Counted from the first letter of the stretch, positions 11,815 through 62,153 are shown. The stretch: 64,000 nt of DNA from a virus (IMGVR_UViG_3300033273_000374:64001-128000), one strand, 5' to 3'. A program made the numbers and translations. The notes: generated by a model from the sequence alone, not told the origin.

Positions 11815-11843
11815 ATCATAAGTATTTATAAAGTACGCACATA

Positions 11844-12611
11844 ATGACAATATTAATTTCAGGCGGTGACAGTTTTACCTGGGGCAGTGAGCTTGCAGAC
11901 TGTGACACCAATCAACACAGTAACAACACATGGAGTGCATTACTTGCACAACAACTTGGCATGAGTTATGCTTGTGTGGCATTACCTGGGTCTAGCAACG
12001 GTAGCATTGCACGCCGTGTTATGAGAGCCTGCGAAAACAACAAACACAAGCATGATATTGCTGTGGCTGTGATGTGGACCTTTGCCAACAGATTTGAATT
12101 TAGGTTTAGACAAGACACAGGCGAACGTGACACACCATGGTATAGCATTACACCATGGACACACGAAAGTGCTGTGGATCGCATACTGTCACACTTTGTA
12201 AACAACAACGCAGAAATATTACAACATCATGTTGATCACAATCGCAAGATGCAACACAGTGGTATCAGTGACTTCGCAAAGAACTACTACATGCATGTTG
12301 GCGACAATGAAGTTTGGGAATACTACACCACCTACAAAGAAATATTGTTTTTACAACAGTATCTGGTGGCAAACAACATACCATATGTGTTCACACACGT
12401 TGAACCATTGTTTGTGGAACAAAGTGTTGATCCAGATCTAAGTGTGGTTCGTGATCAAATAGACCAAGAACGTTTCTATGCGTTTGATGGATTCTACAGA
12501 TGGGCCAGTGAAAACAACTATCAATTTGGCACAACCCATCCACTAGAGCCAGCACACATAGATTTTGCAAACAATCTTTTTTTACACTGTAAGACAAATA
12601 ACATACTATAA
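11844..12611 (+). CDS. SGNH/GDSL-hydrolase-like hypothetical protein
   Basis: GGDSFTWG, PGSSN and C-terminal HP motifs. Confidence 0.65.
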   Translation: MTILISGGDSFTWGSELADCDTNQHSNNTWSALLAQQLGMSYACVALPGSSNGSIARRVMRACENNKHKHDIAVAVMWTFANRFEFRFRQDTGERDTPWYSITPWTHESAVDRILSHFVNNNAEILQHHVDHNRKMQHSGISDFAKNYYMHVGDNEVWEYYTTYKEILFLQQYLVANNIPYVFTHVEPLFVEQSVDPDLSVVRDQIDQERFYAFDGFYRWASENNYQFGTTHPLEPAHIDFANNLFLHCKTNNIL

Positions 12612-12655
12612 TGAATACACCACCTTTGTAAATAGCAGTAACAAAGGAGGAGTGT

Positions 12656-12715
12656 ATGCTCCATAAAAAATTCTGGTTCACGTGCTCCTCATACATGCAA
12701 GGAGGCAGTGCATAA
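12656..12715 (+). CDS. 19-aa upstream ORF before phoH
   Basis: AAGGAGGAG RBS, then MLHKKFWFTCSSYMQGGSA*, ending 2 nt before the phoH ATG. Confidence 0.35.
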   Translation: MLHKKFWFTCSSYMQGGSA

Positions 12716-12717
12716 AA

Positions 12718-13440
12718 ATGGGTCGGAAAGCAAGAAGACTAGCAAATCAAAATAACGTAGTTGAATTTTCCTTTAATGACAATAGGTACCGCAAAGAGGT
12801 ACTGTTAATACCCCGAAACTTAAATCAAGAAACTTACATAGAAAGACTTCTTAATCCAGAAGGCACCATTACATTTGGTGTAGGACCAGCAGGCACAGGT
12901 AAGACCATGTTAGCGGTGCTGGCAGCAATAAAATATCTCAAACAAGGTACCATAGATAAAATAATCGTCACACGCCCAGCAGTGGGTGTAGATGATGAAA
13001 AGCATGGCTTCTTGCCTGGAGATCTTAATGCGAAAATGGAGCCTTGGACCAAACCCATTTTTGACGTATTCTTAGAATACTACAATCCTAAAACCATACA
13101 ACAAATGATACAAGACAATGTGATTGAAATATCACCTTTGGCATTTATGCGTGGACGCACATTTAAAAAAGCCTACATCATAGCAGATGAAATGCAAAAT
13201 GCAACACCAAATCAAATGAAAATGTTGCTCACACGCATAGGAGATGGCTCACGCATGGCTGTAACAGGTGATATTGCACAAACAGACAAACGTGACAGAG
13301 ACAACGGACTGCTAGATTTTGAACACATATTCAACAGATACGAGCACAGTCGGTATGTTGATTTTGTTAAATTTAATCATGCAGACATTGAAAGACACCC
13401 TGCAGTTAGTGAAGTGCTAGACATGTATGGTGATAAATAA
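12718..13440 (+). CDS. phoH: PhoH family ATPase
   Basis: GPAGTGKT, GFLPGDL, PLAFMRGRT, DEMQN, TGDIAQTD; start at ATG 12718. Confidence 0.96.
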   Translation: MGRKARRLANQNNVVEFSFNDNRYRKEVLLIPRNLNQETYIERLLNPEGTITFGVGPAGTGKTMLAVLAAIKYLKQGTIDKIIVTRPAVGVDDEKHGFLPGDLNAKMEPWTKPIFDVFLEYYNPKTIQQMIQDNVIEISPLAFMRGRTFKKAYIIADEMQNATPNQMKMLLTRIGDGSRMAVTGDIAQTDKRDRDNGLLDFEHIFNRYEHSRYVDFVKFNHADIERHPAVSEVLDMYGDK

Positions 13441-13467
13441 AGTATAAGTTTATACGGAGAAGTTCAC

Positions 13468-14136
13468 ATGGCTGCAAAGACAAGTGTAGACTACTACTGG
13501 AGATTTGAATTCGTTCAAAGCCAAGCAGGTAGCGAAAACGCAAAAATTAAAATTGAACATTATCATTCACAGAGTGTTGATGATGGACAATGGGATATTG
13601 ATACACTAGTTGAAGAACTTGAAATCACAAGCACAGACAGTGCCAATCCAACTGTGTTCACACACATGTGTACAGGTTGCGATGCACCAGGTGTTAGAAG
13701 TTCAAGTGTGGATTCCTCATCAACAACTGCAAAGGCAGCCACTGCAGATACACAAGTACACAAATTCAAAGTCACACTATTAAATGATTACTATTTGGAC
13801 GCAGACAATGACCGTGCTGTAACATGGCAATGGGCAGGTTATGCTCCAAAGTGGATGTGGACCGGCGGCGATGGCGACGAAACCAAAGTGTACAAGGGTT
13901 CATTGAGTAATATTCCAAGCTCAACTGCAGATTATAACATTGGAAGTGATAGTAACTTTACAGCCTACACACCAGGCAGTGCTAAAGCAGATTATCAAGA
14001 GTGCTTTGGTGCTGCTTATGAAGGCGATTTTAATGGCACAGTCAACACCGAAGGTGGTTGGCATCCGTTGCTTATTAGCACAGACTATGTGTTGGCAAAT
14101 TTGCAAACACCTGCAGATGGTGTCTGGACTTACTAA
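13468..14136 (+). CDS. Hypothetical protein
   Basis: 222-aa ORF with RBS GGAG; followed by terminator. Confidence 0.7.
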   Translation: MAAKTSVDYYWRFEFVQSQAGSENAKIKIEHYHSQSVDDGQWDIDTLVEELEITSTDSANPTVFTHMCTGCDAPGVRSSSVDSSSTTAKAATADTQVHKFKVTLLNDYYLDADNDRAVTWQWAGYAPKWMWTGGDGDETKVYKGSLSNIPSSTADYNIGSDSNFTAYTPGSAKADYQECFGAAYEGDFNGTVNTEGGWHPLLISTDYVLANLQTPADGVWTY

Positions 14137-14189: not shown

Positions 14190-14263
14190 TGGCAGAGGAT
14201 GTAGGAGTCGAACCCACGCCTGCAGGGTTGGAGCCTGCTGTGCTACCATAACACTTATCCCCT
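14190..14263 (-). tRNA. trnW: tRNA-Trp(CCA)
   Basis: Cloverleaf; anticodon arm GCAGG-CTCCAAC-CCTGC; GGTTCGACT; encoded CCA. Confidence 0.93.
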
Positions 14264-28180: not shown

Positions 28181-28256
28181 TGGTGACCCCTACGGGACTC
28201 GAACCCGTGTTTCTGCCGTGAAAGGGCAGCGTCCTAGACCGCTAGACGAAGGGGCC
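28181..28256 (-). tRNA. trnE: tRNA-Glu(UUC)
   Basis: Anticodon arm CTGCC-CTTTCAC-GGCAG; encoded CCA. Confidence 0.93.
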
Positions 28257-29624
28257 GGTGATTTCAGGAAGGTAATCCTGCAATTTGATATTTCTATTTA
28301 CGTCTAATTTATTGTTAAATTCAAAAAACATTTTCAATACATTGTAATCAATATCGTTATTTCTAACAGTGTCAAGTATGTGGTTTACACATGTGTTAAA
28401 ATTATGATCAGTTTTGTAACTAGACGTTGACACTAATTTTTCACAGTCTGTGATTACTGCAGTTTTGTTTGGGTGATTTCCAAACCACAAGTATGATGGT
28501 TCATCTACCCAGTTAATTAATACAGTGGCATTTGGATATTGTGTGTTTAAATAGTTAACCAATGGATATAGCCTAGCTACATTGTATATACTTACACTTA
28601 TATTGAAACAAACCACCCATTGACTGTTAAGTGTACGGACGTTTTTGGCTAGTTTATTCCAAGTTATTGGATAGCGTATGTAATACAGTGCATCTGCAAA
28701 TCCATCAACACTTACAATAAACTCAACATTAGTAAAGTGTTTAATTACATCCAAAAACTTTTTAGGTAAAACAAAGGCATTTGTGTTTATCTGCAATAAG
28801 AAATCAGTGCGGTTTTGTTCAATACATTCTTTTAAAAAGTTTATAAATTCATTGCTTATAACAGGCTCGCCTCCTGCAACATACAAACGTTTTACATTTG
28901 GTATATCTACAATTGCAAAATCTGTTGGAGGCGATAGTCCAACAAGAGTGTCTGTTAAGCCTAGGTTGTAAAACTCTTTGTCTAACATATGGCTATCGCC
29001 CGGGCAACAAATTCTGCACTGTGCATTACATCTATTGCCTGTGCGAATATCATAGTCTAACACAGTAGTGTTATCAATAAATTGCTCAACACTGCGAAAA
29101 CCTGTAAGTTCTACCATTTGTTTTGTTCTATGTTGACGTGGACTAGGTAAACTAGCAGTTTCTCGTGTGGTGCAAATTTCACAATGTGCAACAGGATTGC
29201 CTGCAATCATGTCCTGCCTAATACCATTCATTATATCATTGTTGTAGTTAAAACTTTTTGTTGTAAGCAGTTTGTTTTGATAGCAACAAAATCTGTATGC
29301 TTCTCCATCATGGTTTTGCACTAGAGCACCAAATGCTGCACCACAAAAACTTTTGTTTTCTTCAAGGTATTGCATCACAGGGTGCTGGCCTATGCTGGAC
29401 AAAAAAGCAGGATCAGCACTGTCAAGTTCAATCAACTGTGCATCACTTGCTATGTCAAGTAGTTCTTGACTAGTTATATCATAATGACTGGTATGATATA
29501 CACCTGCTTGTATTTTTGTGTGTGCATCGAGCACTCCACAATATTCTAAATTGTGACTATGTGCAATAGTTTGTGCAGAATAACCGGCTTGTTCACTGCC
29601 GTCACCTATACAAATTATTAGCAT
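28242..29624 (-). CDS. Radical SAM protein with SPASM/twitch-like Cys motifs
   Basis: GNRCNAQCRIC, AGGEP, INTNA, SVDG; last 5 codons lie inside tRNA-Glu. Confidence 0.85.
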   Translation of the reverse strand: MLIICIGDGSEQAGYSAQTIAHSHNLEYCGVLDAHTKIQAGVYHTSHYDITSQELLDIASDAQLIELDSADPAFLSSIGQHPVMQYLEENKSFCGAAFGALVQNHDGEAYRFCCYQNKLLTTKSFNYNNDIMNGIRQDMIAGNPVAHCEICTTRETASLPSPRQHRTKQMVELTGFRSVEQFIDNTTVLDYDIRTGNRCNAQCRICCPGDSHMLDKEFYNLGLTDTLVGLSPPTDFAIVDIPNVKRLYVAGGEPVISNEFINFLKECIEQNRTDFLLQINTNAFVLPKKFLDVIKHFTNVEFIVSVDGFADALYYIRYPITWNKLAKNVRTLNSQWVVCFNISVSIYNVARLYPLVNYLNTQYPNATVLINWVDEPSYLWFGNHPNKTAVITDCEKLVSTSSYKTDHNFNTCVNHILDTVRNNDIDYNVLKMFFEFNNKLDVNRNIKLQDYLPEITGPFV

Positions 29625-29738
29625 TTATAGTTCTCCTGGGCACCATCCATTCAATTATTTTACCTGTTAAATGGAAAACAGGATTGTATTTAGTGGAAGT
29701 AAGCGAGATTAACTAACCTCTAGACAAAAGGGCTATTA

Positions 29739-29813
29739 TGGCTCCTCAAGATGGATTCGAACCACCGACCGGATGGTTAACAGCCGTCTGCTCTGCCACT
29801 GAGCTACTGAGGA
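29739..29813 (-). tRNA. trnN: tRNA-Asn(GUU)
   Basis: Loop CTGTTAA; one anticodon-stem mismatch; encoded CCA. Confidence 0.9.
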
Positions 29814-29821
29814 ATAAAACT

Positions 29822-29895
29822 TGGTGGAGAATAGGAGAGTCGAACTCCTGATTCTAGAATGCAAATCTAGCGTGATCCCACTTCACTAATTCCCC
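29822..29895 (-). tRNA. trnA: tRNA-Ala(UGC)
   Basis: Loop TTTGCAT; G3:U70 and A73 identity elements. Confidence 0.92.
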
Positions 29896-29901
29896 ATTGT
29901 G

Positions 29902-30111
29902 TTATGTGTCTAGAGGAAGTTTGCTATGCTCATCAATCAAGGCTATAACTTCATCTAAACTGCCACAGATAATTTTTACACCTGCCCAATCTTCTTCACT
30001 GTTGCGACCACGTGCCTCAACAACGAAACCATTTGTTACACGCCTAACTTCAATGGTTTCATCTACTTTAACAAGGCCTTCTTGTTTAAGGCTGGTTGTG
30101 TTGTGTGACAT
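29902..30111 (-). CDS. Small hypothetical protein within tRNA cluster
   Basis: 69 aa; RBS GGAG; TATAAATA at 30122-30129. Confidence 0.7.
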   Translation of the reverse strand: MSHNTTSLKQEGLVKVDETIEVRRVTNGFVVEARGRNSEEDWAGVKIICGSLDEVIALIDEHSKLPLDT

Positions 30112-30131
30112 TCGTTACTCCTATTTATATG

Positions 30132-30207
30132 TGGCGGGAATGACCGGGCTCGAACCGGCGACCTTTGGCGTGACAGGCCAACGCTCTAACCAATTCAGCA
30201 CACACCC
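30132..30207 (-). tRNA. trnD: tRNA-Asp(GUC), degenerate D-arm/acceptor stem
   Basis: TTGGC-CTGTCAC-GCCAA arm and T-arm intact; acceptor has a T-T mismatch; D-stem irregular. Confidence 0.75.
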
Positions 30208-30215
30208 ACAAATTG

Positions 30216-30293
30216 TGGTCTCGGTGGTAGGATTCGAACCTACGATCTCTTGCTCCCAAAGCAAGCGGATTAACCAGACTTTCCTACACCGAG
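30216..30293 (-). tRNA. trnP: tRNA-Pro(UGG)
   Basis: CTTGC-TTTGGGA-GCAAG; encoded CCA. Confidence 0.93.
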
Positions 30294-30295
30294 TT

Positions 30296-30388
30296 TGGCG
30301 GACAGGGAGGGATTCGAACCCTCGGAACGATTAACCATCGTTCAATGGATTAGCAATCCACCGCCTTCGACCACTCAGCCACCTATCC
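30296..30388 (-). tRNA. trnS: tRNA-Ser(GCU)
   Basis: GTGGA-TTGCTAA-TCCAT; long variable arm; G73. Confidence 0.93.
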
Positions 30389-30394
30389 TTGTTG

Positions 30395-30553
30395 TTAAGC
30401 CTTTGCTAGACTACGCAAAAGTTTATCTACTGCAGCCTGTGCTGTTTTACGATCTACACCTTCTGTGCGTTGTACAAATGCAACTGCTTTTTCAACACTC
30501 AATCGTAATCCGTATAGTGCTTCGTGTGCGGCATAATCAACATCTACGTGCAT
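30395..30553 (-). CDS. 52-aa hypothetical protein (not in ORF track)
   Basis: RBS AGGAGA; MHVDVDYAAHEALYGLRLSVEKAVAFVQR...; own sigma70 promoter. Confidence 0.65.
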   Translation of the reverse strand: MHVDVDYAAHEALYGLRLSVEKAVAFVQRTEGVDRKTAQAAVDKLLRSLAKA

Positions 30554-30579
30554 AACAATCTCCTAATGTTTATTGTATT

Positions 30580-30608
30580 ATAATACAACAGAAAGTAAGA
30601 GATGTCAA
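30580..30608 (-). promoter_or_regulatory. sigma70-like promoter
   Basis: TTGACA-17 nt-TATTAT. Confidence 0.7.
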
Positions 30609-30618
30609 TAGAAAAATT

Positions 30619-30650
30619 TGGTGCCTGTAGAGAGGATCAAACTCTCACTC
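30619..30650 (-). pseudogene. Diverged duplicate of the tRNA-Leu 3' end (T-arm, acceptor strand, CCA)
   Basis: GAGTGAGAGTTTGATCCTCTCTACAGGCACCA versus GAGTGGGAGTTCAATTCTCTCTACGGGCACCA in tRNA-Leu. Confidence 0.75.
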
Positions 30651-30660
30651 AAAGCAAATA

Positions 30661-30745
30661 TGGTGCCCGTAGAGAGAATTGAACTCCCACTCCGTAAGGA
30701 AACGGTACCTAAAACCGTCGCGTCTACCTATTCCGCCATACGGGC
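30661..30745 (-). tRNA. trnL: tRNA-Leu(UAG)
   Basis: ACGGT-TTTAGGT-ACCGT; long variable arm; encoded CCA. Confidence 0.93.
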
Positions 30746-30796
30746 ATGTGTGGTGTGTTTGACCCTAGTATAGTGTGGTTGGCCCTATTAAAATTA

Positions 30797-30873
30797 TGGT
30801 GCTGGTGGAGAGACTCGAACTCCCAACATTCTGATTACAAAACAGACGCTCTACCAATTGGAGCTACACCAGC
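30797..30873 (-). tRNA. trnT: tRNA-Thr(UGU)
   Basis: Loop TTTGTAA; encoded CCA. Confidence 0.9.
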
Positions 30874-42722: not shown

Positions 42723-42880
42723 GTAATTTTACCAGTTGGCTTGACCAACAAAACTCAGCTACACAAGCATATTTTAGACAACATCCTGTATGGAGCAACG
42801 AACACATGTATTTTGGGATTAGTTGTGGTTTTGTATGTGGTGTACTTGTAACTTGGTTACTGATGTCTATTTTGAAGTAG
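42719..42880 (+). CDS. 53-aa protein with C-terminal TM (not in ORF track)
   Basis: ATGA overlap; MSNFTSWLDQQN...GFVCGVLVTWLLMSILK. Confidence 0.55.
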   Translation: MSNFTSWLDQQNSATQAYFRQHPVWSNEHMYFGISCGFVCGVLVTWLLMSILK

Positions 42881-44879
42881 CGTGGTATACGCCTGACCAA
42901 TCTGCAGGTTTTCCAGCACTCATACGCTCAGTCATTTTGTCATAATACTCAGACATACTAGGTGCTGCTGACTTGTATTTTTCTACGTCACGGAACACTA
43001 CATCCCATTTGCCTGCATAATAGTTTTTGAGGAATTCCTTGTGCTGCTTGGTTTCTTTGTGCAGTGTGTAAATGCGCAGAGGAAGTTCTTTACCTTTAAC
43101 GGCAATATTATCTAACTCCCACCAATCAAAATCATCACTGGTCGCAGCAACAGTGTCTGGTCCTGCGATCATTAGCACACCATAACTTTTTGTTTGTGAT
43201 TCTAATCGTGCTGCTACACTAACTGGATCTCCCAAACAGTCATAGCCCATTTTACGGTCACTGCCAATGTTGCCCACAAGTATTAGTCCTGTGTTTATAC
43301 CTGCACCCATTCCAACCGGAGGCTTGCCGTCCTGTGCTAGTTCAAGATTAAATTGTTCAACTGCATCCAGCATGTCTTTGATTGTGCGCACACCATCATA
43401 GGCATGACGCTCATTGTCTAAAGGTGCACCGTGTATGTGCATACTAGCATCACCAATAAACTTGATAAGTGTGCCATTGTTATCAAGCACAGGGTTGGCA
43501 ATAGCAGTCATATAGCGATTCATTACAGTTGTAAATCCTTCAACGTCTGCACCATAACTTTCGCCAAGTCCTGTGAAGTTGCGCATGTCAGTCATTACAC
43601 AAGTGAGCATTTTTTCTTCGCCGCCCAGTCGTATTAGGCTTGGATCTTTTTGCAGTTGTTCAACCACTGTTGGATTTACATATGTTCCAAACTGCTTTTT
43701 GATCTGTTGCTTTTGGAAAAACTCTAATACAAATCTGTTGAACACTGCATGGAAGCCTGTGAGCACAGTTGTAACAAGTGGCATAGTGCCATCAATCAAA
43801 AACAGTTTGGTTGTCCAAGCATAGTAAGGTGCATATATTACACCTCCTGCAAACACAAGTATTGCGCCGCCTACAAACCAATATGGTGTAAAACGTGCAA
43901 GAATGACCAATAACAATCCTAGTATGCCTGTTGCTGCTAGTTCAGCGATGTTGCCCCACCATGGACGTGTGATTTGATCACCGTCTATCATAGTTTGCAG
44001 TGTGATTGCTGTTGGAATAAAACTAAACTTTTCACCTACAGGTGTTGCAACCAGTGTGGTTGTGCCTGCTGCAGTGGGTGCAATTATGACTGTGCGTCCA
44101 GCAAACGAACTAAAGTCATCATTGGCAGCACTGATTGTTTCAAAGTCTTTGTTGTAACGTAACCATATTCTAGTAAATGGATCTGTGTTAACAATAGGAT
44201 ATCCAGGTATGCGGATCTTTTCAACACCTGCTGGAGAACTTTTGATTTGATAACTTGGTGCACCTGTTGCAACACGAATAACTTCTACAGCCAATGAAGG
44301 ATATGTTTCTTCACCAATACGCATTATAAGAGGAACACGACGCACAACACCATCAATTTCAGATGCAGTGTTGGCAACACCAACACCTGGTGCGTTCAAC
44401 CCTAACAGTGGAATAGGACCTAACATACCATCCCATTCGTATAGGAAAGGCAATGGGTCACCTATTTTAGCAACACCACGTGGTACACCATTACGGTTTA
44501 TGTCTGTGCTGCCTGTTTGTGCAATAACAATTGCATTATCAACCAGTGCTTCTGCAAGTGCTTGGTCACCACCCAATCTATCTTCTTCACTCATTATAAC
44601 TGGTAGCACAATAACGCCTGCACCCTGTTCGCGCAACTTCCAAATTATGTCTGCCAGTTGACTACGATTCCAAGGCCATTGGCCATACTTTTCTATTGCT
44701 GCTTCGTCTATAGCAACAACGCCAATGTCTTTGCTTGTTTGTGGAGTATCTGTTTGTTGTAGTAAATCAAACTGTTTGAGTCTGAGTGTTTCTACTACTG
44801 TGCTGTCTTGATAGTGTACAAACAGTAGCAGCAACGCTGTGATTGCTGCTACTGTCCAGTGTGTGATTACTTTAAACAT
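42867..44879 (-). CDS. CHASE2-domain class III adenylate/guanylate cyclase
   Basis: YGQWPWNR and DGVVRRVPL (CHASE2), 3 TM helices, TDMRNFT, IKFIGDA, GNIGS...YDCLGDPVSVAARLES. Confidence 0.93.
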   Translation of the reverse strand: MFKVITHWTVAAITALLLLFVHYQDSTVVETLRLKQFDLLQQTDTPQTSKDIGVVAIDEAAIEKYGQWPWNRSQLADIIWKLREQGAGVIVLPVIMSEEDRLGGDQALAEALVDNAIVIAQTGSTDINRNGVPRGVAKIGDPLPFLYEWDGMLGPIPLLGLNAPGVGVANTASEIDGVVRRVPLIMRIGEETYPSLAVEVIRVATGAPSYQIKSSPAGVEKIRIPGYPIVNTDPFTRIWLRYNKDFETISAANDDFSSFAGRTVIIAPTAAGTTTLVATPVGEKFSFIPTAITLQTMIDGDQITRPWWGNIAELAATGILGLLLVILARFTPYWFVGGAILVFAGGVIYAPYYAWTTKLFLIDGTMPLVTTVLTGFHAVFNRFVLEFFQKQQIKKQFGTYVNPTVVEQLQKDPSLIRLGGEEKMLTCVMTDMRNFTGLGESYGADVEGFTTVMNRYMTAIANPVLDNNGTLIKFIGDASMHIHGAPLDNERHAYDGVRTIKDMLDAVEQFNLELAQDGKPPVGMGAGINTGLILVGNIGSDRKMGYDCLGDPVSVAARLESQTKSYGVLMIAGPDTVAATSDDFDWWELDNIAVKGKELPLRIYTLHKETKQHKEFLKNYYAGKWDVVFRDVEKYKSAAPSMSEYYDKMTERMSAGKPADWSGVYHATSK

Positions 44880-44889
44880 ACACTATTTA

Positions 44890-46914
44890 CTAGAATTTGA
44901 TGTTAATCCCTGCTGTAATTGAATTGCTTGAACCAAGATCAGTTTGTATTCTTGAAGCATTGACACCAATTGTACTACCATTATCCATAACAGTCTTGTT
45001 AATACCAACTGATGCTTCTGTTGTTCCATCTGTGTGATATAAACCAGTTATATCAACTAAATCAAATAGATTTGCAGTTGCACCAAATGTACCATAGTTG
45101 TACATGTCAGTATCGCCTGCAACAGTTCTTGCACTTTGTATTGATCCTGTTTCTGCGTATCCATCTAGTTTGGTGCGTCCTACTGTATACCCAACAATCG
45201 GTTGTATGATATAACCTTTTGCTTTGAACTGTAGGTTTACACTTGAATCTGTGCCACTGGTTGCTGCACTGTTATTGAAGTCACCAATGGTTCTAAGTGA
45301 TGTATAATCAGTCATAGCGTGAGTTGCTTTTAGAACAATATCAGCATTTGGAAAACTTTTACCAACCTTTAATTGTCCTGCACGAGTTGTTGCACTAGCA
45401 CGATCAGCACCATTTTTAATTTTGGTTTCAACTGCTGCAAAACCTGCACCAATGATAATACCACTTTCAGTTACTTTGGTTCCGCCTGCGGTAAAACCTT
45501 TACTGTCACCTTTCATGCCATTGTCAAACTTGTTCTTTTTACCAATAGCAGTAACACCATTAAAGTCAAGTCCTTTGATAGTGGCACTTACACTATCTTG
45601 CGCAGTTGCAATCTGATCAATGCGTCCTGTAAATGAACCAGGATCAGTTACAGTTGTTACGCTGTCATTGCGAACTACAGTCGTGCTTGTGCTTTCGCCA
45701 TCTGTAACAGTTTCACTACCATCACTATATGTTGTAGTTGTGCGATCAAAACTTGTAGTTGTTACATTAACTGGTGTTGTAACAGTTGTAGTTTTTTCTC
45801 TAGCAATAGTTTGTATAGCACCTGCTTCACTTGCTTCGTGGTGTGTAATGCTTGCTGTTAGTACAGGAAGTGTAGTACTTGTTGCTTCACTAGTGCTAGT
45901 AATAGTTTCTGTAGTTGTGCTAACAACTGTAGGTGTTGTACTACCAGTTGCACCACTTTCTGCTGCATCAGTAGCACTACCAACGTCCGACACTGTTCCC
46001 CAACTGTCTGTGGTTGTAGTGTCACCGCCACCAGCGCCGCCGTCAACAGCATCTTCTGCTGCATCAAATGCGCTTGGACCAAAAATGTATGCGTAACTTG
46101 CTGTTAGGATATCACCTGAGCTAACGCCTGTCCATGTCCAACTAATACCAATAGTATCGTCGCCGTTGCCGTATAATACATTGTTACCATCTGCGTCTGT
46201 ATAGTTTGTTCCGTTGTATGCATCAGCATCTGTTTCCCAACCATTGATACCTGCTGTTACGTTTGTATCTGTTGTGTAGATACCAAGTGCATAGCGGCTT
46301 TCAGTTGCTTCACTAAATGCAAGGTTTGTGCTTGGAATAACACCGTAGCCTAGCACGTTATCTGTGCTAGAACTGTCGCCAGGCATACCTTGGCTGTCTG
46401 GGTCAATGAACTTACCAAAACTTACACTGTCTGCATCTACACTCATTGTTATTGAACTTGTAACATCAATAAATGGCGTATTGTCTGCAAGACTGTAACT
46501 ATTGGTGATATCAAAAACACTTGATACTCCACCGGTCCAACTTAGTGTGTCAGTACCATCTGTAAGTCCATTACCATCGCCTGTAATACCTGTACTACCT
46601 GTGTTGTTGTTTGTGTAGTTAGTACCATCTACCTTAACACTAAAACCATCAAATGGTGATCCTGGTGTTAGATAGTCATAACTTGAATTAAATGTTCCTG
46701 TTCCATTTGGATCAAAAAGTAGTCCTGGGCTTGTGTTGCCCCCGGAACCAAATGTTCCCGTGTTACCGTTCACACCTGCTTTGACCCATTCGTTTTCAAG
46801 CACACCCATACCTGTTGCGGTTGTGCTCATACTACTAGTATCAGCCAACGATACGGTGGTCAGGCTGGTACTAGCAAGTAACGTCGCTAAAAGCGACACT
46901 TGCATGATTTTCAT
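44890..46914 (-). CDS. Secreted protein with Thr/Ser-rich linker and autotransporter-like beta-barrel
   Basis: Signal peptide (ATG 46914), Gly/Thr/Asp-rich passenger, amphipathic beta strands ending ...SITAGINIKF. Confidence 0.65.
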   Translation of the reverse strand: MKIMQVSLLATLLASTSLTTVSLADTSSMSTTATGMGVLENEWVKAGVNGNTGTFGSGGNTSPGLLFDPNGTGTFNSSYDYLTPGSPFDGFSVKVDGTNYTNNNTGSTGITGDGNGLTDGTDTLSWTGGVSSVFDITNSYSLADNTPFIDVTSSITMSVDADSVSFGKFIDPDSQGMPGDSSSTDNVLGYGVIPSTNLAFSEATESRYALGIYTTDTNVTAGINGWETDADAYNGTNYTDADGNNVLYGNGDDTIGISWTWTGVSSGDILTASYAYIFGPSAFDAAEDAVDGGAGGGDTTTTDSWGTVSDVGSATDAAESGATGSTTPTVVSTTTETITSTSEATSTTLPVLTASITHHEASEAGAIQTIAREKTTTVTTPVNVTTTSFDRTTTTYSDGSETVTDGESTSTTVVRNDSVTTVTDPGSFTGRIDQIATAQDSVSATIKGLDFNGVTAIGKKNKFDNGMKGDSKGFTAGGTKVTESGIIIGAGFAAVETKIKNGADRASATTRAGQLKVGKSFPNADIVLKATHAMTDYTSLRTIGDFNNSAATSGTDSSVNLQFKAKGYIIQPIVGYTVGRTKLDGYAETGSIQSARTVAGDTDMYNYGTFGATANLFDLVDITGLYHTDGTTEASVGINKTVMDNGSTIGVNASRIQTDLGSSNSITAGINIKF

Positions 46915-47041
46915 GTTCAATCTCTCTCTTCTTCCCTATCTCAGAGTGATTGAAAAAAAAACTATTTTATTTTTTAAGAGGTTATAAATTGAATGTTGGT
47001 ATGTTCCAGGATACGTCGCCTCTTATGCTTCGACTGTGTAT

Positions 47042-47380
47042 TTAGTTTTGTGTTACAGTTACTGAACATCCACCTTGCGTAGTGCAATATTGAGTTACTG
47101 TTGCACTAAAATTATCACCATTTTGGTAAACGTTAGTAGTTGTTGGTTGTGTTCCTGTTTGTTCTATTGTAAAAGTGTTATAATTGCCATCTTGTACTAC
47201 ATTAACTGTATTATAATTACCATTGACATAAACATCTAAATCGTTGTCTTGCCCATTTTTTTGTATAAGAGATAGTTCTATGCTATCTCCGTATGCCTCT
47301 AAGAATATATCATTGGCCCACACACTACCACCAAATAGTATTAGAACGATGCTACTGCTTTTGACGAATCGTGATAACAT
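47042..47380 (-). CDS. Small curlin-repeat protein (CsgB-like)
   Basis: Signal peptide, mature start NDIFL; repeats VNGNYNTVNVVQDGNYNTFTIEQTG...YQNGDN. Confidence 0.65.
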   Translation of the reverse strand: MLSRFVKSSSIVLILFGGSVWANDIFLEAYGDSIELSLIQKNGQDNDLDVYVNGNYNTVNVVQDGNYNTFTIEQTGTQPTTTNVYQNGDNFSATVTQYCTTQGGCSVTVTQN

Positions 47381-48479
47381 TGTTTGGTGCTGCTCCTGTG
47401 TCTAAACTCAATGTATAGTTCTCAATTATACTACCATTTTGATCAATGTTAAGTGTATAATCATAACTTTGACTTAAGGTTAATCTAATATAGTTGCCTG
47501 TGCCATCATCACGTATGACCACAAAGTCTGGATCTTGATTGAGTATTGAAATGTTTTTGTCTGCTTTGTAGCCAAATATTTCCTCTTTGGCAATGTCTGC
47601 AAATTCGCTTTTTAAAAGTGCTGCTAGTTCAGCGTTGCTGCGATCTAGTGCATCAAACAAAAACTCCAATGCCAATGGATCATAATCTAATTCTGTATAC
47701 CAAGTTTCTTTTTCGTCAATACCCAGTAAATCTTGATCCAATCCATCAAACTCTAAAAAATCTAAACCCAATACATCTACTAAATCATTGACTCTTGCTC
47801 GTTCTTCTTCTTCATCTATATATACTGGTTTGCGTACAATAATCAAATTGCTAATAAATGTTTCATCTGGATCTAACAGCAAGGGTCTCTGTGGAGCCGA
47901 ATCAACGGCGGAAACGGTAGTGGCTTGGAAGGCTTGGTTGAGAACTACCTGTCCCACATCCGACTCCACAGAGATTTCTCCAACTGTACACAGAGCTTTG
48001 CTCCCTATTTGTGTACAACTGGGTAACAGTATGACAGTACTTTGACCAATCTCATCAACACTCATACTAAAGTCTGTGCCTCGCACAGCAATAGTTGCAG
48101 TGGGAGTTCTGATCTTAATGTTCTGTCTTGAATTCTTTGCTATTTGACCACTGGCATATCTCACAGTGCCAAGTGCTGCTTTGATACTAAGAGCACCAGT
48201 CTTAGTATTAGGATCGTAAACAAACTCGTCTATGAGCAGTTTACTGTGTTCAGTGACATCCACTCTTGTGTCATCAACAAACTGTATTGAAGTACGACCT
48301 CTTGCTGTTTTAACAGTATCATAACTTTCTACATCTGTGCCTTTGTCCACCGTCAAAGCCTCGCCTCCTTTGCGTTCAATCATGGTATTGCCCTTTTGTT
48401 CAATAACATCACCTATAGAGGCAAGGCTTTGCGTGGTTGAGAGAACTAACAATGCTAGGGTTATGAATACTTTATACAT
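47352..48479 (-). CDS. FecR-domain protein
   Basis: DTVKTARGRTSIQFVDDTRV, IRTPTATIAVRGTDF. Confidence 0.85.
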   Translation of the reverse strand: MYKVFITLALLVLSTTQSLASIGDVIEQKGNTMIERKGGEALTVDKGTDVESYDTVKTARGRTSIQFVDDTRVDVTEHSKLLIDEFVYDPNTKTGALSIKAALGTVRYASGQIAKNSRQNIKIRTPTATIAVRGTDFSMSVDEIGQSTVILLPSCTQIGSKALCTVGEISVESDVGQVVLNQAFQATTVSAVDSAPQRPLLLDPDETFISNLIIVRKPVYIDEEEERARVNDLVDVLGLDFLEFDGLDQDLLGIDEKETWYTELDYDPLALEFLFDALDRSNAELAALLKSEFADIAKEEIFGYKADKNISILNQDPDFVVIRDDGTGNYIRLTLSQSYDYTLNIDQNGSIIENYTLSLDTGAAPNNVITIRQKQ

Positions 48480-48481
48480 TG

Positions 48482-49201
48482 TTAGTCGCTCTGTGTTATA
48501 TCAACATCAAAACTATCACCATTGATGGTTAGGTCAACAGTATTGTCATAGACACCACTTTGTGTGATATCAACAGTACCGCCGCCACCGGTGACATCTA
48601 AGTCAATGGTATGTCCTGCACTATCACCGTTGCCGTCTACATCGATTGTAACTGCAACACCTTCGTCGCTGTTTGCACTTGTTGTTGCTAGACTTGAACT
48701 GTTGTCAACAGCCACTGTGATATTAGCATTGGTACCATCTAAACTGGTGTTGATAATGTTGTTGTCGCCTGTGACTGTAAATGCCACAGTCGCACTATCA
48801 GCATCACTGGTTTCACCAATGTTGATTGTGTAATCGTTGTCACTACCGGTGTTTGTTACATTAAGTGTAACAGTATCACAGTTTCCTGCGGCTGAGCTAC
48901 TACACAACAATGCAATACTGTTGCTGTCACCTGTAATACTCCAAGTACCTGTGTAGGTTGCTCCTTTGATGGTTGCTGCTATGGTATTGTAACTACCTGT
49001 TTGGGTAATTGCAAATGTCATATTATCACCATTTAAGGTTACACCTGTAGTTGAAGTTCCGATTACGTTGTCCTGTCCATCTTGTGTGATATCTAAGTCC
49101 AAACTATCGCCACTTTGCGTAATGTATATGTCATTAGCAAATGTGACAGTTGCAAAAAATAGAATACTCAAGACAGCGAACAATTCTACTGCGCTTCTCA
49201 T
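48482..49201 (-). CDS. Curlin-repeat protein (CsgA-like)
   Basis: Signal peptide, mature start NDIYITQSGD; about 9 Q/T-x-G-x-x-N repeats (QDGQDN, QTGSYN, NTGSDN, VTGDNN, QSGVYDN). Confidence 0.72.
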   Translation of the reverse strand: MRSAVELFAVLSILFFATVTFANDIYITQSGDSLDLDITQDGQDNVIGTSTTGVTLNGDNMTFAITQTGSYNTIAATIKGATYTGTWSITGDSNSIALLCSSSAAGNCDTVTLNVTNTGSDNDYTINIGETSDADSATVAFTVTGDNNIINTSLDGTNANITVAVDNSSSLATTSANSDEGVAVTIDVDGNGDSAGHTIDLDVTGGGGTVDITQSGVYDNTVDLTINGDSFDVDITQSD

Positions 49202-50043
49202 TTTTTCTCTCCTGCAGTATTAGGCTTACCGTTAGGATAATATCCTATGACCTTGTTGCCATAGTATTTTCCTTTGAATTTCCAGAAGCCTTTAATTTCT
49301 CCCTGTTTTACTAGTTCTGCAACCGCTGCCTCGATTGCTGCTTTTACTGCATAACTAGTAGGTTCATTCACTGCATACCCTGCCTCAACCTCCAGGGCTT
49401 TAGTACCTAAATCAAGGAACCTAAATACATCTCCGCCAGTGCTATGGCTGAGAATTGTTTTTTGTGTGAGTACAGTGAGCAATATCTCACCTGTTTGCAC
49501 ACTTACAATGCGCATGGCTATTGTAATCTGATCTACTCTATATTGTGTGTTGGCACCAATGCCAAAGTACCTAGCACCAATACCACCTGATTGTGTGTTG
49601 CTGTCATACCCAACAACACCACCATCGATGAGCAGTCCAGCGTATTTTAATGCTTTGAGAGGACTTTTACCATCATTAAAGGTTTCTGCTGTACTGCGTA
49701 TGAGTTGTCGTTCTTTTGTAAGATTTTGTAGTCCACCACGTTCTAGCACTGTGAACCACGTTTCATTGCCTATGTTTTTTAAGGCCTCTATAACATAAAC
49801 TTCACTGCCTTGTGTAACAGCACTGCTCAGTTGACTAAAACGTTCGTTGGGTTTACGCTGTCCAGTTTTGTCTGTAAACTCGTAAACAGCAATAGGAATT
49901 TTTGGGCCATCTAGTTCTGGAATTTCTGCTATCACAGGAACAGGGGCTGGTGCTAGTTCGGGTTGTTTGTTCACGTCATTGTGTGCACCGCATCCTGCAA
50001 GTGCCAGACCAATGACGATGATTGGTAAAAGACGCTTGAACAT
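49198..50043 (-). CDS. csgG: Curli secretion channel CsgG
   Basis: LAGC lipobox; AVYEFTDKTGQRK, SSAVTQG, LERGGLQNLTKERQLIR, GGVVGYD. Confidence 0.95.
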   Translation of the reverse strand: MFKRLLPIIVIGLALAGCGAHNDVNKQPELAPAPVPVIAEIPELDGPKIPIAVYEFTDKTGQRKPNERFSQLSSAVTQGSEVYVIEALKNIGNETWFTVLERGGLQNLTKERQLIRSTAETFNDGKSPLKALKYAGLLIDGGVVGYDSNTQSGGIGARYFGIGANTQYRVDQITIAMRIVSVQTGEILLTVLTQKTILSHSTGGDVFRFLDLGTKALEVEAGYAVNEPTSYAVKAAIEAAVAELVKQGEIKGFWKFKGKYYGNKVIGYYPNGKPNTAGEKK

Positions 50044-50046
50044 TGT

Positions 50047-50493
50047 TTAAAATCCAAACCCTGACAGTGGAACTGTAAGTTCAGTCACTGTGCCATCTGC
50101 TTCTAAAATAGAAACTGTAATGGTGTCGGATGTTATGTCTTTGACCCAGTTAATGGTAGCACCTTCAATTTCTGCAGTGCCACTTGTAGCACCATCTTCT
50201 GTAAACATACCATCAACGAGACTTTTACTGATGTTAGCGTAGATTCTACTTTCCACGTTCTTAAGAAATTTTGCTAGTGTAGAATTCTCAGCTTCACGCT
50301 CTTCTTGACGCAATGCTGCTTCTTCTTTTTCTATTATTTCTTTTTTACGTGTGGTTTGTAATTGATCTATAGCAAGCACATGGTTACTGTAACCATTGCC
50401 GCTGAATGCAGGGTTCTTAAATCCAAACGTTACTTCGCTTGCTTGTGCCTGTCCAAATGCAAATACCCCCAACAATACAATGAGATATTTCAT
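50047..50493 (-). CDS. csgF: Curli assembly factor CsgF
   Basis: Signal peptide; ASEVTFGFKNPAFSGNG...LAIDQLQ. Confidence 0.88.
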   Translation of the reverse strand: MKYLIVLLGVFAFGQAQASEVTFGFKNPAFSGNGYSNHVLAIDQLQTTRKKEIIEKEEAALRQEEREAENSTLAKFLKNVESRIYANISKSLVDGMFTEDGATSGTAEIEGATINWVKDITSDTITVSILEADGTVTELTVPLSGFGF

Positions 50494-50508
50494 AGTTTAG
50501 CCCTCTCC

Positions 50509-50646
50509 AAGAGCCTTACTAGTTAAACGCCCACTCTCACCTAGGCTTTAGACCCCTAATCGAGACATCACGAATGCCAGCTGAGAACTAGTCTACAACC
50601 GGAAAAGTGATATCTCGAAAACGCCTAACTAACTAGAAGTCTCTCC
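50509..50646 (-). ncRNA. ~140-nt nested stem-loop RNA in csgF leader (unidentified)
   Basis: 12-bp helix 50607-50618/50560-50571; further helices CCGGTTG/CAGCTGG, TAGGC/GCCTA, CTAGTTA/TAACTAG, GAGAGACTT/AAGGCTCTT. Confidence 0.6.
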
Positions 50647-50700
50647 TCTTCCAGTAATATTTAGGTCAAATTGTAGTAGGATTAAAACTGTATATAATTA

Positions 50701-51786
50701 TTATTGAATTTTGGCTTTGTTGAGTGTGAGTTGAGCCCATTGCTCACGTCCAGCACCTGCTTGTGTTGGAACAATACTGATGCTGGTAGCATTGGCATGT
50801 CCACTGTTTCTAAATGCTGTAAGGTCTGCTGCATTCTTGATCATGCCTGATTTTAGATTTGGGAAGCTGATTAATAAAAGTGCATCAAAATCATCTCTGT
50901 CTTTATACCATGCAAAGTTTTGTTCTAGATATGCTTTTTCAATTACACCAGGATCTTCACTGTTTGCTATAGCATCAGCAACAGGTCCTGTAAAGCCTTC
51001 CATGTCCATTGTTAACAATTCAGTAGCAATCTGTTTGCGCAACTGTTTGTTTTCTGCAGCATTAGGTCCTGATATGGGTAAGTCTGCATTAAGTCCGTTA
51101 ATAAAACCTGAAAAACCTAAACTGCCACCTGTGCCGCCAATGTTTGCTACAACAGTTGGAATACGAGCTGCAAATTTATCTATCACATTACGTTTTGCTT
51201 TTTGTGAGCCACCACCATACCCAATGCGTCCACCTGCACTACCAAGTGCTGCTTTGAGTTCTACCTTGCCTATGCCGTCAATTTCTAAGTCACCTTCGCC
51301 ACTTGCAAGGCGTATTTTGTTACTGAGCATGGCAAGTGCAAACTCACCTGGGCCTTTTTGTTTTACACCTACTCCATAACGTGCAAGAGCAGTGAATGCT
51401 TTTACAGCAATTGGGTCGTTGTCAAATACAGCATTGAGGCTAGACAAAGGTTTGCTAAGAGCACCTATGTTTACAACACCGCCACCTTCTAGCCTTTTAA
51501 GGAATGCATTTAAACTTTTGTAGTCACTGTCTAGACCTGCAATGATCTTTGTTACTTCTTGTCTGTGTCTAGCAAGCTCTTGTTGGTTCATGTTTTCATC
51601 TGCACTAGGTGGTGTAAGTGCAGTTTCAATGTTTGCGCCAATTGTGCCTGTGTTTAGCAGTTTGTAGATACGATCCAACAGGGCAGCATCATCTGCATTA
51701 TCAGCACTGAGGCCAGAAATTTTAGCAATAATGTTTTGCTTTTCTTGTTCTAGATTGTCGTATTCAAACAGGTGCTTTAGTAACAT
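50701..51786 (-). CDS. Hypothetical protein with PD-(D/E)xK-like motif
   Basis: GPGEFAL...GDLEIDG..VELK; N-terminus MLLKHLFE; TAAATA at 51794-51799. Confidence 0.6.
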   Translation of the reverse strand: MLLKHLFEYDNLEQEKQNIIAKISGLSADNADDAALLDRIYKLLNTGTIGANIETALTPPSADENMNQQELARHRQEVTKIIAGLDSDYKSLNAFLKRLEGGGVVNIGALSKPLSSLNAVFDNDPIAVKAFTALARYGVGVKQKGPGEFALAMLSNKIRLASGEGDLEIDGIGKVELKAALGSAGGRIGYGGGSQKAKRNVIDKFAARIPTVVANIGGTGGSLGFSGFINGLNADLPISGPNAAENKQLRKQIATELLTMDMEGFTGPVADAIANSEDPGVIEKAYLEQNFAWYKDRDDFDALLLISFPNLKSGMIKNAADLTAFRNSGHANATSISIVPTQAGAGREQWAQLTLNKAKIQ

Positions 51787-51792
51787 AGTATG

Positions 51793-52491
51793 TTATTTAT
51801 CGAGAATCTCAAACGTAGGCCAACTGTAAAAATTGATTTGATCTCGACTGTGTTCTGTGCGTGTGCCAACAACTGTGATTGTGTTTTGTATTAGGCTCTG
51901 CCAGATGTTGCGAAATGGATTGTCCATGTCCATTTCAATTAGGTTTGCTCTGTTATTTTCGTCTTCAAACCAATAGCACAAATATTCTTTTCTGTCTTTG
52001 CTTTTGCTTATGCGTCTTGTTTTTTTGACATGCATACCTAAGAATGTAAGCAATGAACGTGTATCACGTGGACGTGTTGTTTGCAATTGTTTGTTAGTAA
52101 ATTCTTCAGTGTTGCACTGATACTTGATATCTTCTAGTGTTTTATCTTCCATGTACATTCTCGGTAGACTCATCAATTGTCTTATTTCAGTGGTAACATA
52201 TGTTTGTTTATTTTCGCTCAACAGTGCCAGCAGATCACGTCTAAAGGTGGTGTTTAACACACCCTTTATGCTATACATCATGTATTTGTTTTTATAAAAC
52301 TTACGTATCTCTTTTGCTTGGTAAACAAAGTCAGGCATTTCCATGTCATGATGTTCGCACAATTGGTTACTTGCTTCATTATCAAATATCATACGTGCTG
52401 GTTCTAAATCTAAATAGTGCATCAGCAGTGCAACTGCAATTGGATCGTAATCGTATTCACCGGGTTGACTGTTTAGGTCAAACAGCATCAT
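51793..52491 (-). CDS. Hypothetical protein
   Basis: 232 aa; ATGA overlap with guaC. Confidence 0.6.
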   Translation of the reverse strand: MMLFDLNSQPGEYDYDPIAVALLMHYLDLEPARMIFDNEASNQLCEHHDMEMPDFVYQAKEIRKFYKNKYMMYSIKGVLNTTFRRDLLALLSENKQTYVTTEIRQLMSLPRMYMEDKTLEDIKYQCNTEEFTNKQLQTTRPRDTRSLLTFLGMHVKKTRRISKSKDRKEYLCYWFEDENNRANLIEMDMDNPFRNIWQSLIQNTITVVGTRTEHSRDQINFYSWPTFEILDK

Positions 52492-61396: not shown

Positions 61397-61429
61397 ATTT
61401 GAAACTCCTCTAATGGTATTTATAAAGAA

Positions 61430-61452
61430 AAAGCACCCATTAAGGGTGCTTT
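61430..61452 (-). terminator. Intrinsic terminator after tmRNA
   Basis: AAAGCACCC-TTAAT-GGGTGCTTT followed by a T-run. Confidence 0.8.
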
Positions 61453-61453
61453 A

Positions 61454-61716
61454 GGTGCCGGATTCTGTTTCGAGGCTCCGGCGGGCCCAGTGGATTATGC
61501 CGCTAAAGGCATATCCTCATCTGCAAAATTATCGTTTGCGTTTGTTTTGTTTGCTTGATTTACGGTCATCGCCTACCGGTAACTCCACGTTCTCTATTGC
61601 ATCAGTCGATCCCTATCACCCCCTCAAAGCACACTCAGCGAATGTGTTTTAAGTGAATGGTGGAGGTGGGGAGAATTGAACTCCCGTCCTGCCTGCCGTC
61701 AATTGGCTTCAACGTT
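61454..61716 (-). ncRNA. ssrA: Circularly permuted (two-piece) tmRNA
   Basis: Acceptor piece ending GGAGTTCAATTCTCCCCACCTCCACCA (CCA end 61658) precedes coding piece starting GGGGGTG (61623); G3:U70; tag ORF 61539-61495 = ANDNFADEDMPLAA*. Outer ends approximate. Confidence 0.93.
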
Positions 61717-61766
61717 ACAAGTATATTTATAGCAGATAATTACATCTTAGTCAAATAAATATTTTG

Positions 61767-62153
61767 ATGTTACAGCGTATAAAGAAATGGTTCACCATAG
61801 ATCATGTGGTTGATCTCACAATTGATATACTGCTAATGGTATGGGATGTTATCACTAGTCCTGTGCTAATTGTGGTGCGCATACTGCGACACTTTATAGG
61901 TGAATACATCACAGATAAAATTAAAGCAGGTATACGTTGGATAGCACATTGGTTTGAACGCAAACGTGCTTACAGACTAGAACATGGACATGGAATATTT
62001 CGCACCTACTGGTGGCTTATAATAGGCAGTCCATTGCTCATTGTTGGTATTATTACCATTGTACTTGTGTTTGCAGGTTTTGCCACAGTTGTAGATTGGT
62101 TCATTGAAGAATTAGAAATTGAGTTTGGCTATGGTGAAGATGATGATTATTAA
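61767..62153 (+). CDS. Membrane protein
   Basis: Two hydrophobic segments; TAAATA upstream. Confidence 0.65.
   Translation: MLQRIKKWFTIDHVVDLTIDILLMVWDVITSPVLIVVRILRHFIGEYITDKIKAGIRWIAHWFERKRAYRLEHGHGIFRTYWWLIIGSPLLIVGIITIVLVFAGFATVVDWFIEELEIEFGYGEDDDY

Follow-up and report, generated by a model that had tools for sequence, protein, structure and literature searches.

The seven-gene block and the published viral curli module

Does a viral gene block that joins curli-like secretion genes to putative signalling genes represent a new system, or a further copy of a module already described? In this study, we performed a computational analysis of a 64,000-nucleotide (nt) stretch of viral DNA (hereafter the window), corresponding to bases 64001-128000 of the 202,913-bp linear IMG/VR virus record IMGVR_UViG_3300033273_000374, which carries genes for CsgF- and CsgG-like proteins, two curlin-repeat proteins, a FecR-domain protein, a beta-barrel protein and a CHASE2 cyclase. 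The 203-kb record is incomplete, with a CheckV completeness estimate of 57%. Our analyses showed that the block is one copy of the viral type VIII secretion (curli) module of T4-like marine myophages and some podophages, organized as a single operon-like block with an extra autotransporter; we put the probability of the explanation as a whole, with its proposed fibres and cyclic AMP signalling, at about 0.6. The window adds no new system. The first-pass annotation had regarded the block as the best candidate for an undescribed one, but the module had appeared in print in 2022 with its curlins, FecR and cyclase all included (PMC9599517), and GenBank annotates it in the phages Melnitz and HTVC008M.

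A 'curli operon' of pelagimyophages was reported with a proposed role in uptake (Zaragoza-Solas 2020, PMC7029224), and the curli genes of Melnitz were discussed with a proposed role as a pore (Buchholz 2022, PMC9004378). For podophage and myophage pelagiphages, the order histidine kinase (HK)-CsgF-CsgG-CsgA/B-FecR-CsgA/B-adenylate cyclase was described together with the statement that bacterial type VIII secretion operons contain neither FecR nor the cyclase; the module was found at all 65 GOV2.0 stations, and superinfection defence, sibling capture and import were proposed as its roles (Wittmers 2022, PMC9599517). The earlier view that phage csgF and csgG generally come without recognised curlins is therefore out of date, since CsgA/B genes were recognised in that work. 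Metatranscriptome expression of the viral curli module is also in print (PMC9599517, PMC7029224), and curli genes are reportedly lacking in SAR11 and OM43, the known hosts of lytic-type carrier phages (PMC7029224, PMC9004378, PMC9599517). The texts of these three studies make no mention of CHASE2 or of an autotransporter.

Melnitz (gp99-104) and HTVC008M (gp014-019) both showed the order CsgF, CsgG, curlin-associated protein, FecR-domain protein, second curlin-repeat protein and adenylate/guanylate cyclase, and GenBank already gives most of these genes such names, in Melnitz all six. The present block agrees with the modules of HTVC008M, Melnitz and the HTVC023P-type podophages in gene order, phage type and marine source. 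It departs from HTVC008M and Melnitz in the 676-amino-acid (aa) autotransporter that separates the second curlin from the cyclase, in the minimal length of that curlin (112 aa) and in the larger size of the record (at least 203 kb).

All seven genes and their coordinates, as first annotated, were confirmed by Pfam and, for the barrel, by fold evidence (Table 1). The genes are consecutive and co-oriented on the minus strand (window 50493 to 42867), and their junctions overlap or measure 2-10 nt, save for one gap of 121 nt before the autotransporter gene. Pfam named six of the seven, the 676-aa gene being without an hmmscan match. Megablast of the block against GenBank phages returned no match, and relatives of the block were thus found at the protein level only: the FecR-domain protein matches the 'FecR domain protein' of Melnitz with 53% identity and gp017 of HTVC008M with 51%, the cyclase is 51% identical to Melnitz gp104, and the two proteins show 46-51% identity to their HTVC008M counterparts (tblastn). 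With L009, a locus 88%-related to the block, as reference, the ratio of non-synonymous to synonymous substitution rates (dN/dS) was 0.07-0.30 for six block genes, including 0.13 for the first curlin gene and 0.08 for the cyclase gene, with the autotransporter the fastest; dS was near saturation and the values are rough. These ratios indicate that the block genes are under purifying selection.

Relatives of the module are abundant, with a FecR relative on at least 508 viral contigs and a CsgG relative on at least 565. Two viral surveys, anchored on FecR and on CsgG, each examined the best 80 matches. In the FecR-anchored survey, CsgF, CsgG and the first curlin were present in all 65 loci with at least 3.5 kb upstream, and the CHASE2 cyclase in all 40 loci with at least 6 kb downstream; in the CsgG-anchored survey, FecR was found in 54/54 and the cyclase in 36/36 viral loci. 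The synteny survey, which had been suggested as a check on the first reading, thus found the signalling genes co-conserved with csgFG. In addition, in the myophage and podophage versions alike, the FecR gene was always flanked by the two curlin genes, often with overlaps. In L006, L097, L106, L114, L139 and L143, the cyclase gene either runs on the other strand or precedes csgF, so that some lineages have a rearranged block with unchanged gene content.

Table 1. Leader and genes of the curli block, listed from the csgF end (window coordinates).
Feature	Coordinates	Strand	Evidence or remark
Intergenic leader 5' of csgF	50494..50700	(-)	strongly structured segment 50494-50660
CsgF-like protein, 148 aa, Sec signal peptide	50047..50493	(-)	Pfam CsgF, E 5e-14
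CsgG-like outer-membrane lipoprotein channel, 281 aa	49198..50043	(-)	Pfam CsgG, E 2e-52
First curlin-repeat protein, 239 aa, conserved CsgA-like member	48482..49201	(-)	Pfam Curlin_rpt, E 7e-5
Secreted FecR-domain protein, 375 aa	47352..48479	(-)	Pfam FecR, E 1.7e-10
Second curlin-repeat protein, 112 aa	47042..47380	(-)	Pfam Curlin_rpt, E 3e-5
Type Va autotransporter, 676 aa	44890..46920	(-)	AlphaFold2, Foldseek, PF03797
CHASE2 class III nucleotide cyclase, 670 aa	42867..44879	(-)	Pfam CHASE2, E 5.4e-40; Guanylate_cyc, E 3.5e-14

The FecR-domain protein, the CHASE2 cyclase and their bacterial relatives

The phage FecR protein comprises a signal peptide, a FecR domain (residues 54-150), a beta region with a Cys-x8-Cys pair, a helical, acidic middle part and a C-terminus rich in beta structure. 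It belongs to a large family (more than 7,900 metagenomic relatives), in whose alignment the N-terminal half is highly conserved. The FecR domain directly follows the cleavable signal peptide, and neither a cytoplasmic anti-sigma domain nor a further Pfam domain was found in the protein. A FecR-type anti-sigma or iron-citrate regulator was considered and ruled out by the signal peptide, the lack of a cytoplasmic domain and the assignment of the adjoining barrel as an autotransporter, and for the same reasons the label 'iron regulator' is unwarranted. The protein is a secreted FecR-domain protein of the CHASE2-associated kind. Its conserved C-terminal extension of ~165 aa is a phage feature, the bacterial relatives matching about residues 44-205 (tblastn). 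The idea that this C-terminus is a curlin-like strand was rejected, as the profile-profile probability between the FecR and curlin families was 1%. The AlphaFold2 model of the protein was too poor for use (predicted local distance difference test score, pLDDT, 47.8; 8-row alignment), and a complex prediction of the CHASE2 periplasmic domain (23-308) with the FecR domain (21-215), run without controls, scored 0.00 and weighs neither way.

The hydrophobic segments read from its sequence give the cyclase a transmembrane segment, a periplasmic CHASE2 domain, three further transmembrane segments and a cytoplasmic cyclase domain, whose homologues in the PDB are Cya2 and CyaB (around 1e-22). The metal-binding Asp residues D431 (TDMRNFT) and D477 (IGDAS), the Lys K473 (KFIGD), the Asp of YD and the Arg are all present, and the Lys and Asp indicate ATP-type specificity. 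The cyclases of phage modules split into two active-site subtypes: a Melnitz type (Asn->Ser / Asp), to which the present cyclase belongs, and an HTVC008M type; Lys / Ser-Thr / Asn is retained in HTVC008M, as it is in the bacterial homologues. Two loci hold a fragmented CHASE2 cyclase, split over five short open reading frames in L109 (~11100-13500) and over two in L010 (4825-6663), which are possibly decaying copies or assembly errors.

The FecR alignment was searched against one genome per prokaryotic species, giving 80 loci. Four of these (L010-L013) showed 46-52% identity, three covering nearly the whole protein, and carried the phage block or the part of it that fits on the contig. Their contigs, three of them 7-12 kb long, had been binned into metagenome-assembled genomes (MAGs) labelled Flavobacteriaceae, Legionellales, Rhodobacteraceae and Pirellulales, that is, four phyla, and in all likelihood they are phage sequences that faulty binning has assigned to bacterial MAGs. 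They could pass for bacterial curli-FecR operons.

In the remaining 76 loci the FecR domain alone was matched. The pairing of FecR-domain proteins with CHASE2 cyclases in bacteria, which the first-pass annotation had noted for rhizobia, was borne out: a CHASE2 cyclase lies in 26 of 75 bacterial FecR loci, in 16 of the 26 within 120 nt. A tetratricopeptide repeat (TPR) protein of ~500 aa accompanies 24 of these 26 loci, and a Crp-family regulator that binds cyclic nucleotides some of them. Examples of the conserved triad of FecR-domain protein, cyclase and TPR protein are found in the bacterial loci L021-L086 (e.g., L028:5463-7103 and L064:4269-5096), and it spans Alphaproteobacteria, Deltaproteobacteria, Omnitrophota, Elusimicrobia, Planctomycetia and Spirochaetales. 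No homologue of CsgG, CsgF, the curlins or the autotransporter occurred in any of the 76 bacterial FecR loci. These surveys show that adjacent FecR and CHASE2 cyclase genes are widespread in bacteria and that curli genes join this pair only in phages; the phage module is thus a fusion of two bacterial modules.

Characterized relatives fit this picture. In Sinorhizobium meliloti, with the CHASE2 cyclases CyaD1, CyaD2 and CyaK, the Clr targets include SMc02177 (FecR) and SMb20495 (TPR) (PMC5498481), and the Burkholderia BiofilmReg operon encodes a LysM-FecR protein with a CHASE2 histidine kinase (PMC5192318). The feature shared with the phage block is a secreted FecR-domain protein encoded beside a CHASE2 membrane sensor. 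Unlike these bacterial modules, the phage block shows no TPR protein or Crp-family regulator, has its own FecR C-terminal extension and lies inside a curli operon.

The independence of the bacterial pair raises the question whether the phage block simply carries two uncoupled cargoes in one transcription unit, a curli surface set and a FecR/CHASE2 pair that raises host cyclic AMP (cAMP) and so reprograms metabolism or defence. The absence of curli genes beside the pair in bacteria (0/76 loci) would agree with this, as would the six viral loci with a cyclase that has changed strand or side, and the fragmented cyclase of L109. We nevertheless consider it unlikely. The FecR gene is always wedged between the curlin genes in both myophages and podophages, the cyclase stays in the locus throughout both surveys (40/40 and 36/36), and the conserved extension of the phage FecR is not matched by the bacterial relatives.

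The secretion channel, the curlin-repeat proteins and the proposed fibre

The CsgG-like protein matched E. coli CsgG structures over residues 8-260 (1.9e-53) and has the lipobox L-A-G-C at residues 15-18; its constriction loop, TGQRKPNERFSQLSSAVTQ, is conserved among the phage copies. The mature N-terminus of the CsgF-like protein is SEVTFGFKNPAFSGNG. Phmmer of CsgF against the PDB gave no match. Of 107 distinct phage CsgF open reading frames, 93 carry the motif xFxNP(S/A)FSG (TFGFKNPAFSGNG) immediately behind the signal peptide. The equivalent N-terminal segment of E. coli CsgF plugs into the CsgG barrel. With the motif kept, the CsgF-CsgG pair is expected still to assemble, which speaks against the suggestion that CsgG and CsgF no longer cooperate (Buchholz 2022, PMC9004378).

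Both curlin-repeat proteins scored just above the Curlin_rpt cut-off of 20.7 bits, the 239-aa protein with 23.1 bits and the 112-aa protein with 24.3 bits, and the match of the former was also recovered in a six-frame genome search. Both have a signal peptide with cleavage after A and a mature protein beginning with NDI, as first noted, and the mature start ANDIY(I/V)xQxGD is conserved across dozens of curlin-like homologues. The nearest Atlas clusters to the 239-aa protein are viral 'curlin associated repeat' proteins; the alignment of its family showed invariant N23, D24, Y26, Q29 and G31 and a C-terminal IDITQxD, the family ending in IDITQ(S/T)D. The 112-aa protein matched the NCBIfam families CsgB (2.9e-8) and CsgA (3.2e-7), both far below the cut-offs (that of CsgB being an equivalog cut-off), and aligned to the C-terminus of Melnitz gp103 (E 5e-8). 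It is the short form of a family of 112-494 aa and retains the family's C-terminal motif C-x4-6-C-x-V-(S/T)-V-T-Q-(N/Q/Y); its gene and the FecR gene share 29 nt. Because the assembly of T4-like virions takes place in the cytoplasm, a virion role is unlikely for the curlin-like proteins, as for the Sec-exported proteins of the block in general.

The block shares with bacterial curli systems (E. coli csgBAC/csgDEFG and alphaproteobacterial csg) the CsgG lipoprotein channel, the N-terminal motif of CsgF and two secreted, putative curlin-repeat proteins. In contrast to them, its constriction residues are changed, its curlins are very divergent, longer and equipped with Cys pairs, FecR and the cyclase are embedded in it, and CsgE, CsgC and CsgD were not found in the incomplete record. 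For CsgE (PF10627) and CsgC (PF10610), a profile search of the 203 kb agreed with the first impression that neither is evident; both are also absent from alphaproteobacterial systems (Wittmers 2022, PMC9599517).

According to the explanation preferred here, CsgG and CsgF would assemble in the host outer membrane of the infected cell and export the two curlin-like subunits. The 239-aa curlin would be the main subunit and the length-variable second curlin a nucleator or cargo-bearing subunit, and amyloid-like fibres of the two may arise on the cell surface. In the periplasm, the FecR-domain protein would serve as ligand-binding or adaptor partner of CHASE2, as presumably in its bacterial relatives, and the cyclase would turn the state of the envelope or of the outside into cAMP. 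The autotransporter could be an optional add-on that displays its beta-sandwich passenger on the same surface, not a required signalling link. An amyloid coat acting in aggregation or as a superinfection shield, as had first been supposed, is plausible, and the accompanying idea of cAMP signalling is reasonable; both have already been proposed in print.

Several observations speak against this explanation. First, no clumping was seen in Melnitz infections by cytometry or transmission electron microscopy (Buchholz 2022, PMC9004378). Second, the curlin assignment leans on weak repeat matches (21-24 bits), and the curlin family profile, searched against PDB sequences, found no CsgA and returned noise only, e.g., green fluorescent protein. 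Third, the constriction residues Y51/N55/F56 of E. coli CsgG align to N/Q/L in the phage protein. Fourth, the transition-state Asn of the cyclase is replaced by Ser (VSVAAR) in this phage, its near relatives and Melnitz, and the activity may therefore be low or altered. Fifth, families binding cyclic nucleotide monophosphates were not found in the incomplete 203-kb record, so that host receptors would most likely read the cAMP. Finally, the binding of FecR to CHASE2 is putative, with gene neighbourhood as its support.

Some of these points would suit a repurposed CsgG/CsgF pore that makes no fibre, either a pinholin- or secretin-like lysis timer or an uptake channel, gated or reported by FecR and the cyclase. 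A pore was proposed for Melnitz, in which no clumping was seen (PMC9004378), and the uptake version by Zaragoza-Solas 2020 (PMC7029224) and Wittmers 2022 (PMC9599517). The constriction residues, remodelled yet conserved among phages, and the failure to find the CsgE gatekeeper in the incomplete record are in line with such a pore. However, no locus of sufficient length lacks the two curlin-repeat genes with their Sec signals (65/65 for the first one), purifying selection acts on these genes, and CsgF keeps its CsgG-plugging motif, which would be needless for an open pore. Moreover, holin-type lysis timing acts at the inner membrane, whereas CsgG sits in the outer membrane. On balance we hold a fibre-free pore to be improbable and retain the secretion of curlin-like fibres as the preferred reading.

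The autotransporter slot and the surroundings of the block

The 676-aa protein has an autotransporter layout, with a signal peptide, a beta-sandwich passenger (~39-281), a linker that is rich in Thr/Ser and has long hairpins, a helix (436-449) and a barrel (455-673). In the AlphaFold2 model (pLDDT 82.5) the helix is followed by exactly 12 strands, and the protein ends with a C-terminal Phe (...INIKF). In a six-frame genome search, PF03797 scored 33.5 bits for this gene against a cut-off of 26, and 9 of 26 homologues of the protein matched the family (best E 6.7e-46). The best Foldseek match in the PDB was the NalP translocator (E 3e-8, TMt 0.70), with EstA, BrkA and AaaA also found; phmmer against the PDB gave no match. 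Model and profile matches thus identify the protein as a classical type Va autotransporter. It shares with NalP, EstA, BrkA and AaaA the signal peptide, passenger, linker helix, 12-strand C-terminal barrel and terminal Phe, and differs from them in being phage-encoded and in its passenger, a beta-sandwich of ~250 aa that belongs to no named family and is not a beta-helix, protease or esterase. The passenger matched no Pfam family. Its bacterial homologues carry PEP-CTERM anchors or PATR and autotransporter parts, contexts that mark the passenger as a mobile cell-surface domain.

Among cultured phages, the autotransporter had distant relatives only (26-28% identity), in the Synechococcus phages DSL-LC02 and DSL-LC03. 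No homology was detected to the second curlins of HTVC008M and Melnitz, and the gene is therefore an insertion, not a split or fused gene. Homologues with 42-58% identity occupy the same slot in L009, L173, L175/176, L177 and L235, downstream of FecR or the second curlin; the cyclase comes after them, and immediately so in 7 of 9 viral loci anchored on the autotransporter. The gene is missing in Melnitz, in HTVC008M, in 80/80 best FecR-anchored viral loci and in 76/76 bacterial FecR loci. Its carriers are scattered on the FecR tree, requiring at least four gains or losses, the exact number being uncertain on account of long branches. The autotransporter is a recurrent accessory in a fixed slot of several divergent lineages (six or more loci) and not a core link of the module.

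The first-pass annotation had proposed that the outer-membrane barrel relays an outside cue to FecR and on to CHASE2, a route that would resemble those from FecA to FecR or from NsrA to CyaK. The position of the gene directly upstream of the cyclase, in the seven loci mentioned and in L009 and L235, could be taken to favour such a chain. The absence of the barrel from most module copies argues against an obligate signalling link, however, and so do its scattered carriers and the lack of a barrel homologue near bacterial FecR/CHASE2 pairs. Furthermore, the barrel is that of a helix-plugged, 12-stranded type Va autotransporter without a periplasmic, FecA-like signalling domain. The proposal therefore did not hold up, and we regard this chain as very unlikely.

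The csgF leader folds into a structure (50494-50660) with a z-score of -3.5, none of 200 shuffles being equally stable. L009 keeps the fold, and at least one of the changes between the two appears to be compensatory (GATATCAC/GTGATGTC versus GATAGCAC/GTGCTGTC). The leader matched no Rfam family and was not alignable with more distant module copies. A promoter and terminator scan of the block gave counts not above those of shuffles, and a CTAAATA motif that precedes both csgF and the autotransporter gene was not enriched in the window (11 found versus 12 expected). The top sigma-70-like match of the block, TTAACA-16-TATAAT (11/12, window 47452-47425, minus strand), lies 45 nt ahead of the second-curlin start, still inside the FecR gene at its 3' end, and may be due to chance because the overall site count did not exceed that of shuffles.

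Two genes of 361 and 232 aa lie directly upstream of csgF (window 50701-51786 and 51793-52491, minus strand). They had no Pfam or PHROG match, and no histidine kinase was detected there; both genes recur upstream of csgF in L009 (333 and 227 aa). A histidine kinase before csgF is stated for the podophage version of the module (Wittmers 2022, PMC9599517), and none is annotated in Melnitz or HTVC008M, so that it is not a feature of the myophage version. Elsewhere, the record holds T4-like baseplate genes, radical SAM, ClpS and Hsp20 genes, transfer RNA (tRNA) genes and a permuted transfer-messenger RNA (tmRNA). The tmRNA (RF04321, 110 bits) lies at window 61426-61768 and the nine tRNA genes at window 28184-30873 and 14193-14263, all on the minus strand, a complement of tRNAs and tmRNA as in Melnitz-type phages.

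A closer coupling of the parts can be imagined, in which FecR, through its phage-specific C-terminal extension, would monitor the flux of curli subunits or the outer surface and drive cAMP production by the cyclase (for example, for late functions or lysis timing), with the autotransporter, in the lineages that carry it, as fibre anchor or NsrA-like outer-membrane input. We rate such an integrated device as unlikely. If true, it would be a phage-encoded trans-envelope sensing pathway without a bacterial counterpart.

Few host-surface gene sets of ocean phages are as widespread as the viral curli module. What is new here is the CHASE2/FecR reading with its survey of bacterial neighbourhoods, the two cyclase subtypes and the recurrent autotransporter slot. 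The CHASE2-partner FecR, the cyclase subtypes and the autotransporter slot offer experimental handles for HTVC008M with SAR11 and for Melnitz with OM43.

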